This document shows, in pieces, positions 22,778-22,796 of a DNA stretch of 64,000 nucleotides. Numbering within the stretch: the first letter of the stretch is position 1; every line of letters begins with the position of its first letter. The position numbers and the translations under genes are program-made. This stretch comes from a virus (taxonomy: Duplodnaviria; Heunggongvirae; Uroviricota; Caudoviricetes): IMG/VR virus record IMGVR_UViG_2565956719_000002. One strand, written 5' to 3'. The notes below the pieces were generated by a model. That model saw only the letters and a program-made list of their open reading frames with translations. It searched no databases and had not been told where the DNA came from.

Positions 22778-22796
22778 AATGACTAGCGGTAGAATC
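22778..22796 (+). promoter_or_regulatory. candidate late-type promoter AAATGACTAGCGGTAGAAT
   Basis: 16/19 identical to 54177-54195; about 29 nt upstream of the start codon; TAGAAT -10-like hexamer. Confidence 0.35.

Follow-up and report, generated by a model that had tools for sequence, protein, structure and literature searches.

In this study, we addressed the question of what two nearly identical 19-mers represent, which lie shortly upstream of two plus-strand structural operons in a 64,000-nt stretch of viral DNA (in the following the window, meaning the whole stretch that was analysed). An earlier note, made from the letters alone, had read them as activator-dependent late promoters and candidate Lpa sites. 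We consider it very likely, from comparison with annotated relatives, that the sites at 22777–22795 and 54176–54194, together with a third one at 43317–43335, are the Lpa-dependent late promoters LP26, LPsit and LP23 of Escherichia phage P1. The earlier reading is thus supported by base-for-base identity with the three promoters of the P1 record AF234172 and by the presence of lpa in the window. The finding is already known, being annotated in AF234172 and described in reviews, and matters little in itself, as it re-identifies annotated promoters, although a real regulatory family was recognisable from raw sequence.

The host element and its late promoters

Whole-window BLAST identified the 64,000 nt as a P1-like phage-plasmid, with blocks collinear with P1 in reverse complement at 92–99% identity; over most of its length the window is 97–99.8% identical to P1. 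The 2.5 kb surrounding the LP26 site are 99.6–99.8% identical to P1 (AF234172, AF234173, NC_005856) and, to the same degree, to the P1-like phages JL22, RCS47, SJ46 and P7. Since BLAST against P1 showed the collinear blocks to be broken by non-P1 segments (about 1580–2900, 9917–16097, 38595–40848 and 53121–54173), the element is, judged by its sequence, a mosaic P1-like phage-plasmid and not P1 itself. The insert of about 6 kb at 9917–16097, absent from P1, carries lambdoid/Stx-phage-like accessory genes (EaA, Ea22-like, DUF551, ASCH) and is partly common to other P1-like phages.

The first 19-mer (AAATGACTAGCGGTAGAAT; 22777–22795, +) is identical to AF234172 78485–78503, annotated as 'late promoter LP26' with a 9-bp '-22 region' and a -10 signal. 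The second (AAATGACTACTCGTAGAAT; 54176–54194, +) is identical to AF234172 46608–46626, annotated as 'late promoter LPsit' with a '-22 region' and a -10 hexamer, and promoter features are present at the LPsit position in the P7 record as well. Both had been correctly located on the plus strand, with coordinates one base too far to the right. In LP26, the -22 box AAATGACTA (22777–22785, +) is followed by the spacer GCGG (22786–22789, +) and the -10 hexamer TAGAAT (22790–22795, +), and in LPsit the same box (54176–54184, +) is followed by CTCG (54185–54188, +) and again TAGAAT (54189–54194, +). The two sites are, as had been stated, identical at 16/19 positions, and only the spacer differs, at three positions (GCG versus CTC).

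A third site had been described as a looser version at about 43327 before the head gene. Such a site exists; however, it spans 43317–43335 (+), and instead of being looser it carries a perfect match to the consensus box AAGTGACTT (9/9), followed by the spacer TCAA and the -10 hexamer TAAAAT. This sequence, AAGTGACTTTCAATAAAAT, is identical to AF234172 58825–58843, annotated, as 'predicted' only, as 'predicted late promoter LP23' with a '-22 region' and a -10 hexamer, and it is the top match of both position matrices used here (24.7 and 26.9 bits).

All three sites are exact 19-mer matches to their AF234172 counterparts within collinear alignment blocks, and all three lie on the coding strand directly before morphogenesis operons, with gene identities taken from the P1 annotation. 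Downstream of LP26, the baseplate and tail operon 26-25-7-24-6-5 begins with the baseplate gene 26 (22825–23202, +; an ORF mapping to AF234172 gp26), whose ATG at 22825 lies 29 nt from the end of the -10 hexamer. LPsit precedes the tail-tube operon pmgC-tub-pmgB-sit-pmgA-bplA-16, in which the ATG of pmgC (54226–54792, +; an ORF mapping to AF234172 PmgC) follows the -10 end at a distance of 31 nt. The 29–31 nt to the first start codons given before therefore hold when counted from the end of the -10 hexamer. LP23 lies 51 nt before the TTG start (43387) of gene 23, encoding the major capsid protein, which is followed by 22, 21, pmgG, bplB and pmgF in the head/sheath operon. The reported lack of a recognisable -35 could be confirmed at both main sites, as a consensus scan of 22650–22850 and 54100–54260 returned no sigma-70 -35/-10 pair.

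Two further members of the family are LPs (Ps; AAGTTACTTATCTTACAAT; 62715–62733, +; 22.5 bits), which is identical to AF234172 38318–38336 and lies upstream of the tail-fibre genes R-S-U, and LPpac (ATGTGACTTTCGTTACCCT; 5616–5634, −; 22.6 bits), which is identical to AF234172 90475–90493 and lies between lpa and pacA. AF234172 lists 11 late promoters (LPmat, LPpro, LPlyz, LPdar, LPs, LPsit, LP23, LP26, LPpmgL, LPhot and LPpac), six of which (LP26, LPsit, LP23, LPs, LPpac and LPpmgL) are found in the window. The window holds at least six family members, three of which the earlier note had already listed. Compared with the late promoters of P1 (prototype Ps/LPs; AF234172/NC_005856), sequences, positions, architecture, downstream operons and activator gene are the same, so that nothing of substance differs in the promoters, while the host element is a mosaic relative with accessory inserts.

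The annotated late promoter LPpmgL (22767–22785, −; AF234172 78495–78513) reads the LP26 box on the opposite strand as TAGTCATTT and has AATATT as its -10 (22767–22772, −). It matches the family poorly, reaching 10.7 bits even with a matrix that includes LPpmgL itself, a counterpart of its -10 was not found in the sequence of Cronobacter phage JK004, and its function looks doubtful. At 8860–9040 (−), no equivalent of LPhot was found upstream of the hot homologue, and this region has diverged from P1 (about 85% identity within hot and none upstream).

Motif architecture, conservation and alternative readings

The late promoters share a layout of a 9-bp -22 box with the consensus AAGTGACTT, a spacer of 4 nt and a TANNNT -10 hexamer, with no -35. 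The box of LP26 and LPsit agrees with the consensus at 7/9 positions, the positions invariant in the family (A1, T4, A6 and T8) are kept in LP26, LPsit and LP23, and in all three the -10 follows after exactly 4 nt. The shared motif reported before is real, but what is conserved is the box AAGTGACTT together with TANNNT and not the string common to two sites. Aligning the P1 late promoters gives the consensus R-A-C-AAGTGACTT-N4-TANAAT, in which the AC just 5' of the box is conserved like the box itself (A in 9/9 and C in 8/9 P1 promoters; AC in 8/8 JK004 promoters). In the window, these two positions are 22775–22776 for LP26, 54174–54175 for LPsit, 43315–43316 for LP23, 62713–62714 for LPs and 5635–5636 for LPpac. 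Given the asymmetry of the AC, the functional site may be an 11-mer which also sets the direction of transcription, and the conserved unit is better written as AC-AAGTGACTT-N4-TANNNT.

Allowing up to three mismatches, the first 19-mer matches only itself and the second site in the window, and none of 100 dinucleotide-preserving shuffles contained any match. LP26 and LPsit are the most similar pair of the family, with 16/19 identical positions compared to a pairwise mean of 11.6. For the family as a whole, we used an independent matrix of 22 positions trained only on LPmat, LPpro, LPlyz and LPdar, which belong to the part of P1 outside the window. At 18 bits or more, it returned five matches, compared to 0.047 expected from 300 dinucleotide-preserving shuffles, an enrichment of the motif family of about 100-fold. 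Four of these are the annotated LP23, LPpac, LPs and LP26 (18.9 bits), and the fifth is a site in gene 7. For LPsit, this four-promoter matrix gave about 14 bits, which falls short of the 95th percentile of the shuffle maxima (17.6), whereas its score was 23 bits when the matrix was built from nine promoters. The same box at the same spacing precedes at least nine late operons.

The match in gene 7 (AACAAGTGACTGGTGATAACCT; 24479–24500, +) is a candidate late-promoter-like motif located 46 nt inside the gene. The motif is also present in P1 (AF234172 76801–76780) and carries no annotation there. Its score with the independent matrix is 22.2 bits, and shuffles contain 0.003 matches each that reach 22 bits. 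In JK004, its version is degraded (CACAAATGACCGGTGATACGCT), and the region encodes conserved residues (QxTGD). The motif might serve genes 24-6-5 as a cryptic internal promoter, or it might be a coincidence. A further perfect box, in AAGTGACTT-N10-TACAAT at 50280–50304 (+), was rejected: its spacing is 10 nt instead of 4, about one perfect box is expected by chance, and this copy, which runs antisense near the kilA/repL junction, is probably not functional.

Conservation was assessed in JK004, whose Lpa is 67% identical to that of the window and in which matrix matches lie upstream of the orthologues of 23, R, mat, 26, pacA, prt, lyz and pmgC. In an anchored, ungapped comparison of these 8 orthologous promoter pairs between P1 and JK004, identity is 0.81 within the 22-nt motif, compared to 0.39 in the 30 nt upstream and 0.41 in the 30 nt downstream. 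Inside the motif, it amounts to 0.92 for the 3 nt 5' of the box, 0.88 for the box, 0.53 for the spacer and 0.83 for the -10. The contrast between motif and flanks is a clear phylogenetic footprint. At closer range, in 80 P1-like contigs, the LP26 box and the AAC 5' of it are invariant, while the spacer varies, as does position 3 of the -10 (TAGAAT to TATAAT or TAAAAT); variation at LP26 across these contigs is low overall, so that invariance of the box is not significant by itself.

Three other readings were weighed against Lpa-dependent late promoters. If the sites were ordinary activator-independent sigma-70 promoters, of the -10-only or extended -10 type and used early or constitutively, the shared 9-mer would be incidental. 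The good -10 of LP26 and LPsit (TAGAAT, 5/6 to TATAAT) would be in line with this, and several sigma-70 promoters are predicted in AF234172 as well, before pmgC and gene 23. However, LP26 and LPsit have neither a -35 nor the TG of an extended -10, the hexamer being preceded by GG in LP26 and by CG in LPsit. Moreover, P1 and JK004 agree at 0.88 in the 9-mer and at about 0.4 in its flanks, and the box recurs at identical spacing before at least nine late operons. We therefore regard this reading as highly improbable. Even less credence is given to the idea that the box is bound by a repressor, such as C1/Lxc or a different immunity protein, as its operator and is not an activator site. Its quasi-palindrome does overlap the position of a would-be -35, which is a typical operator location, and a C1 operator is present in the same intergenic region as LP26: O26 (former Op82; ATTGCACTAATAATTTT; 22736–22752, +; AF234172 78528–78544), with 2 mismatches to the operator consensus, is placed 25 bp upstream of the LP26 box, and the window holds 12 C1 operator matches compared to 0.25 expected. 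Yet the box bears no relation to the C1 operator consensus ATTGCTCTAATAAATTT, and O26 sits apart from it. Without an activator, a promoter that has no -35 would in any case be very weak, and the literature assigns the 9-bp box to Lpa.

That the resemblance of the 19-mers is due to chance, or is the functionless relic of a local duplication, appears least probable of all and close to negligible. When the three spacer positions were ignored and as many as three mismatches tolerated, at least two matches did occur in 11/100 shuffles, and the 16/19 identity of the LP26/LPsit pair is not kept in JK004, where a hand count gives 11/19. These observations are outweighed, and the chance reading is for practical purposes refuted, by the full 19-mer, which at up to three mismatches did not recur in 100 shuffles, by the roughly 100-fold enrichment of the family and by the footprint of the motif across a clade in which Lpa is 67% identical.

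Lpa and the proposed route of activation

The reading as Lpa-dependent late promoters requires an activator, and the window encodes one: lpa (gene 10; 5666–6118, −) is intact and encodes a late promoter activator of 150 aa (Pfam PF25716 BPP1_LPA, E = 2e-57), which is 100% identical to Lpa of SJ46 and 99.3% identical to that of P1. Upstream of it lies the C1 operator Olpa (former Op94; ATTGCTCTAATGTATTG; 6189–6205, −), corresponding to Olpa of AF234172. Most Lpa homologues of 65–77% identity begin at Met11 of the 150-aa ORF (MSRN... aligned with MEINHSR...), and the true start of Lpa may for this reason be the internal ATG.

A solved structure of Lpa was not found by sequence. An AlphaFold model built from a 14-sequence alignment has a mean pLDDT of 73.5. 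Values above 90 were obtained for most of residues 15–95, which are predicted to form an N-terminal winged helix of the order helix-helix-helix-strand-strand, while the C-terminal half is of low confidence. The best PDB matches of the model in Foldseek are dimeric winged-helix DNA binders (MepR/MarR, Fur/PerR, PadR and BlaI), with probabilities up to 1.0, yet weak E-values of 0.015 or higher. The model fits a dimer that would read a short quasi-palindrome at the place where a -35 would otherwise sit.

For P1, 11 late promoters have been described, with a 9-bp inverted repeat as the Lpa site (PMC10695390), and late transcription requires the host protein SspA (PMC8201110). Lpa is a sequence-specific DNA-binding activator and is thought to contact RNA-polymerase-associated SspA directly (PMC1891329, citing Hansen et al. 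2003). Our literature search turned up no genome-wide 5'-end mapping study of P1.

We propose a model in which Lpa would be made early, once C1 repression of the lpa promoter is lifted. The small protein, with its predicted winged helix, would then bind the 9-bp quasi-palindromic box centred near -22 and, together with the host co-activator SspA, recruit or stabilise sigma-70 RNA polymerase. The E. coli sigma-70 enzyme would recognise the -10 and presumably start about 6–9 nt downstream of the hexamer, and in this way Lpa would be expected to switch on the baseplate/tail, tail-tube and head/sheath operons late in lytic growth.

Phage D6 (MF356679) has the same gene set, and its lpa homologue, encoding an Lpa of 31% identity, adjoins pacA. 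Like P1, it carries a conserved box upstream of a TAnnnT hexamer before late operons; unlike P1, this box is AAATCACA (17 copies compared to 2.8 expected) with a spacer of 7–9 nt, and not AAGTGACTT. Sites of the D6 type lie upstream of 23, R, prt, 7, pmgB, lydA, mat, ddrB and orf16, and the P1-type box is absent from the orthologous places in D6. The low identity of the two Lpa proteins together with the different box suggests that activator and site have diverged together.

A phage-encoded DNA-binding activator that offsets a poor or absent -35 at sigma-70 promoters is also found in Mu (C), in P2/P4 (Ogr/Delta) and in staphylococcal phages (RinA), where the activated promoters likewise serve morphogenesis and lysis operons. 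These activators belong to families unrelated to Lpa, and the positions and sequences of their sites differ. To our knowledge, the need for host SspA as a co-activator is specific to P1 among these systems.

LPsit as a module boundary and possible translational gate

P1 homology restarts at 54174, 2 nt upstream of the LPsit box, and the sim region upstream of it is replaced relative to P1. Among about 80 P1-like IMG/VR contigs, at least five unrelated upstream contexts, consisting of sim or sim-like cargo, meet exactly at ACAAATGAC of LPsit. This identifies LPsit, on the grounds of sequence comparison, as the 5' edge of the conserved tail module, with nothing farther upstream needed or kept, and as the mark of a recombination and module boundary in P1-like phage-plasmids. 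In D6 and in relatives from Serratia, Pantoea and Erwinia, pmgC follows directly after bplB without a promoter, and no LPsit for comparison was found near these more distant PmgC relatives. Since pmgC adjoins bplB there, LPsit seems to be confined to genomes in which an ancestral tail operon was split by the immunity/sim/lytic-replication block. In the JK004 clade, the LPsit box is degenerate (ACATGACAA or ATATGACAA), which is why LPsit may be weak as a promoter or in part independent of Lpa.

In place of P1 simB/simC, the region 52955–54167 (+) contains two ORFs for signal-peptide proteins (224 and 158 aa), probably representing alternative superinfection-exclusion cargo. The two genes are also present in phage vB_EcoM-Ro157c2YLVW, and in JK004 a related gene lies before LPsit. 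The LPsit-proximal ORF, whose product replaces SimC, runs on the same strand and stops 9 nt before the LPsit box.

LPsit additionally overlaps an inverted repeat at 54185–54219 (+), which is predicted to form an RNA hairpin. The repeat is perfect over 11 bp, and the conserved hairpin comprises about 11–14 bp. Its 5' arm (CTCGTAGAATC; 54185–54195, +) contains the LPsit -10 hexamer, while its 3' arm (GATTCTACGAG; 54209–54219, +) overlaps the pmgC Shine-Dalgarno sequence GAGG, covering its GAG. The predicted folding energy amounts to -21.2 kcal/mol (z = -5.27). In each of 12 distinct sequences all 11 pairs form, and 10 of them never vary. The remaining pair is changed from G-C to A-U in the JK004 clade, where the -10 TAGAAT has become TAAAAT and its partner ATTCTA has become ATTTTA; this compensatory change is a single evolutionary event. 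Otherwise, the stem is invariant in about 80 relatives, with 9 of the 13 loop columns being variable. A U-tract was sought after the hairpin and not found, which rules out its reading as an intrinsic terminator.

A transcript starting 6–9 nt downstream of the LPsit -10, at the assumed start site, would begin in the hairpin loop. We compared the predicted cost of opening the pmgC ribosome-binding site in a read-in transcript with that in a late-start transcript, with an assumed start 6 nt after the -10, and found it to be higher by 13.6 kcal/mol in P1 and by 16.1 kcal/mol in JK004, a difference reached by 0/100 mononucleotide shuffles of the upstream part. The mean unpaired probability of the Shine-Dalgarno sequence was uninformative as a measure of accessibility.

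We tentatively propose, giving the idea somewhat less than even weight, that LPsit also acts as a translational gate, leaving read-in transcripts silent for the tail operon and Lpa-initiated transcripts translatable. Transcripts from the upstream sim or sim-like cargo, which is probably expressed in the lysogen, would carry the full hairpin and hide the pmgC ribosome-binding site, while Lpa-initiated transcripts would start in the loop, lack the 5' arm and hence be translatable. Such a gate, if it exists, would account for the tolerance of P1-like prophages towards read-through into tail genes from cargo that is expressed in the lysogen. Our literature search, with key P1 papers outside its reach, returned no description of this hairpin arrangement for P1, and the observation may be new.

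A related arrangement is known from T4, where the late promoters of genes e, soc, 49 and I-TevI lie in DNA that specifies the 5' strand of an inhibitory hairpin in the leader, so that translation should be open only to transcripts begun at the late promoter (PMC3014915). The likeness is confined to LPsit and consists in a promoter placed in the 5' strand of a hairpin by which the ribosome-binding site is concealed, a function which in P1 is presumed from the predicted fold. Both P1 and T4 late promoters lack a -35. In contrast to P1, which would employ host sigma-70 with a DNA-binding activator and SspA, T4 relies on a phage sigma factor (gp55) along with gp33 and the sliding clamp, and on an 8-bp TATAAATA element.

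A general rule by which P1 late promoters sit in hairpins occluding the ribosome-binding site was rejected, as the effect is strong in P1 only for LPsit. For LP23 (ddG 1.5; reached by 30/100 shuffles), LPdar (5.6; 13/100), LP26 (5.8; 8/100) and the remaining P1 promoters, the opening cost resembles that of shuffles. A possible pairing of CTCTTCC with GGAAGAG at LP23 was set aside, as it is not part of the minimum-energy fold. In JK004, the effect amounts to 6.4 kcal/mol for LPs (0/100 shuffles), 9.7 for LP26 (2/100) and 3.2 for LP23 (1/100), which is suggestive of weaker signs of an LPsit-like hairpin design at these three predicted leaders. In JK004 LPs, the -10 is part of an 11-bp inverted repeat, TAAAATCAGAC...GTCTGATTTTA, and in the JK004 LP26 leader, TCCCGC/GCGGGA would let the stretch directly following the -10 pair with the Shine-Dalgarno sequence (the LPs and LP26 regions being JK004 3767–3800 and 38140–38171). 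These two putative pairings are suggestive of independent instances of the design seen at LPsit.
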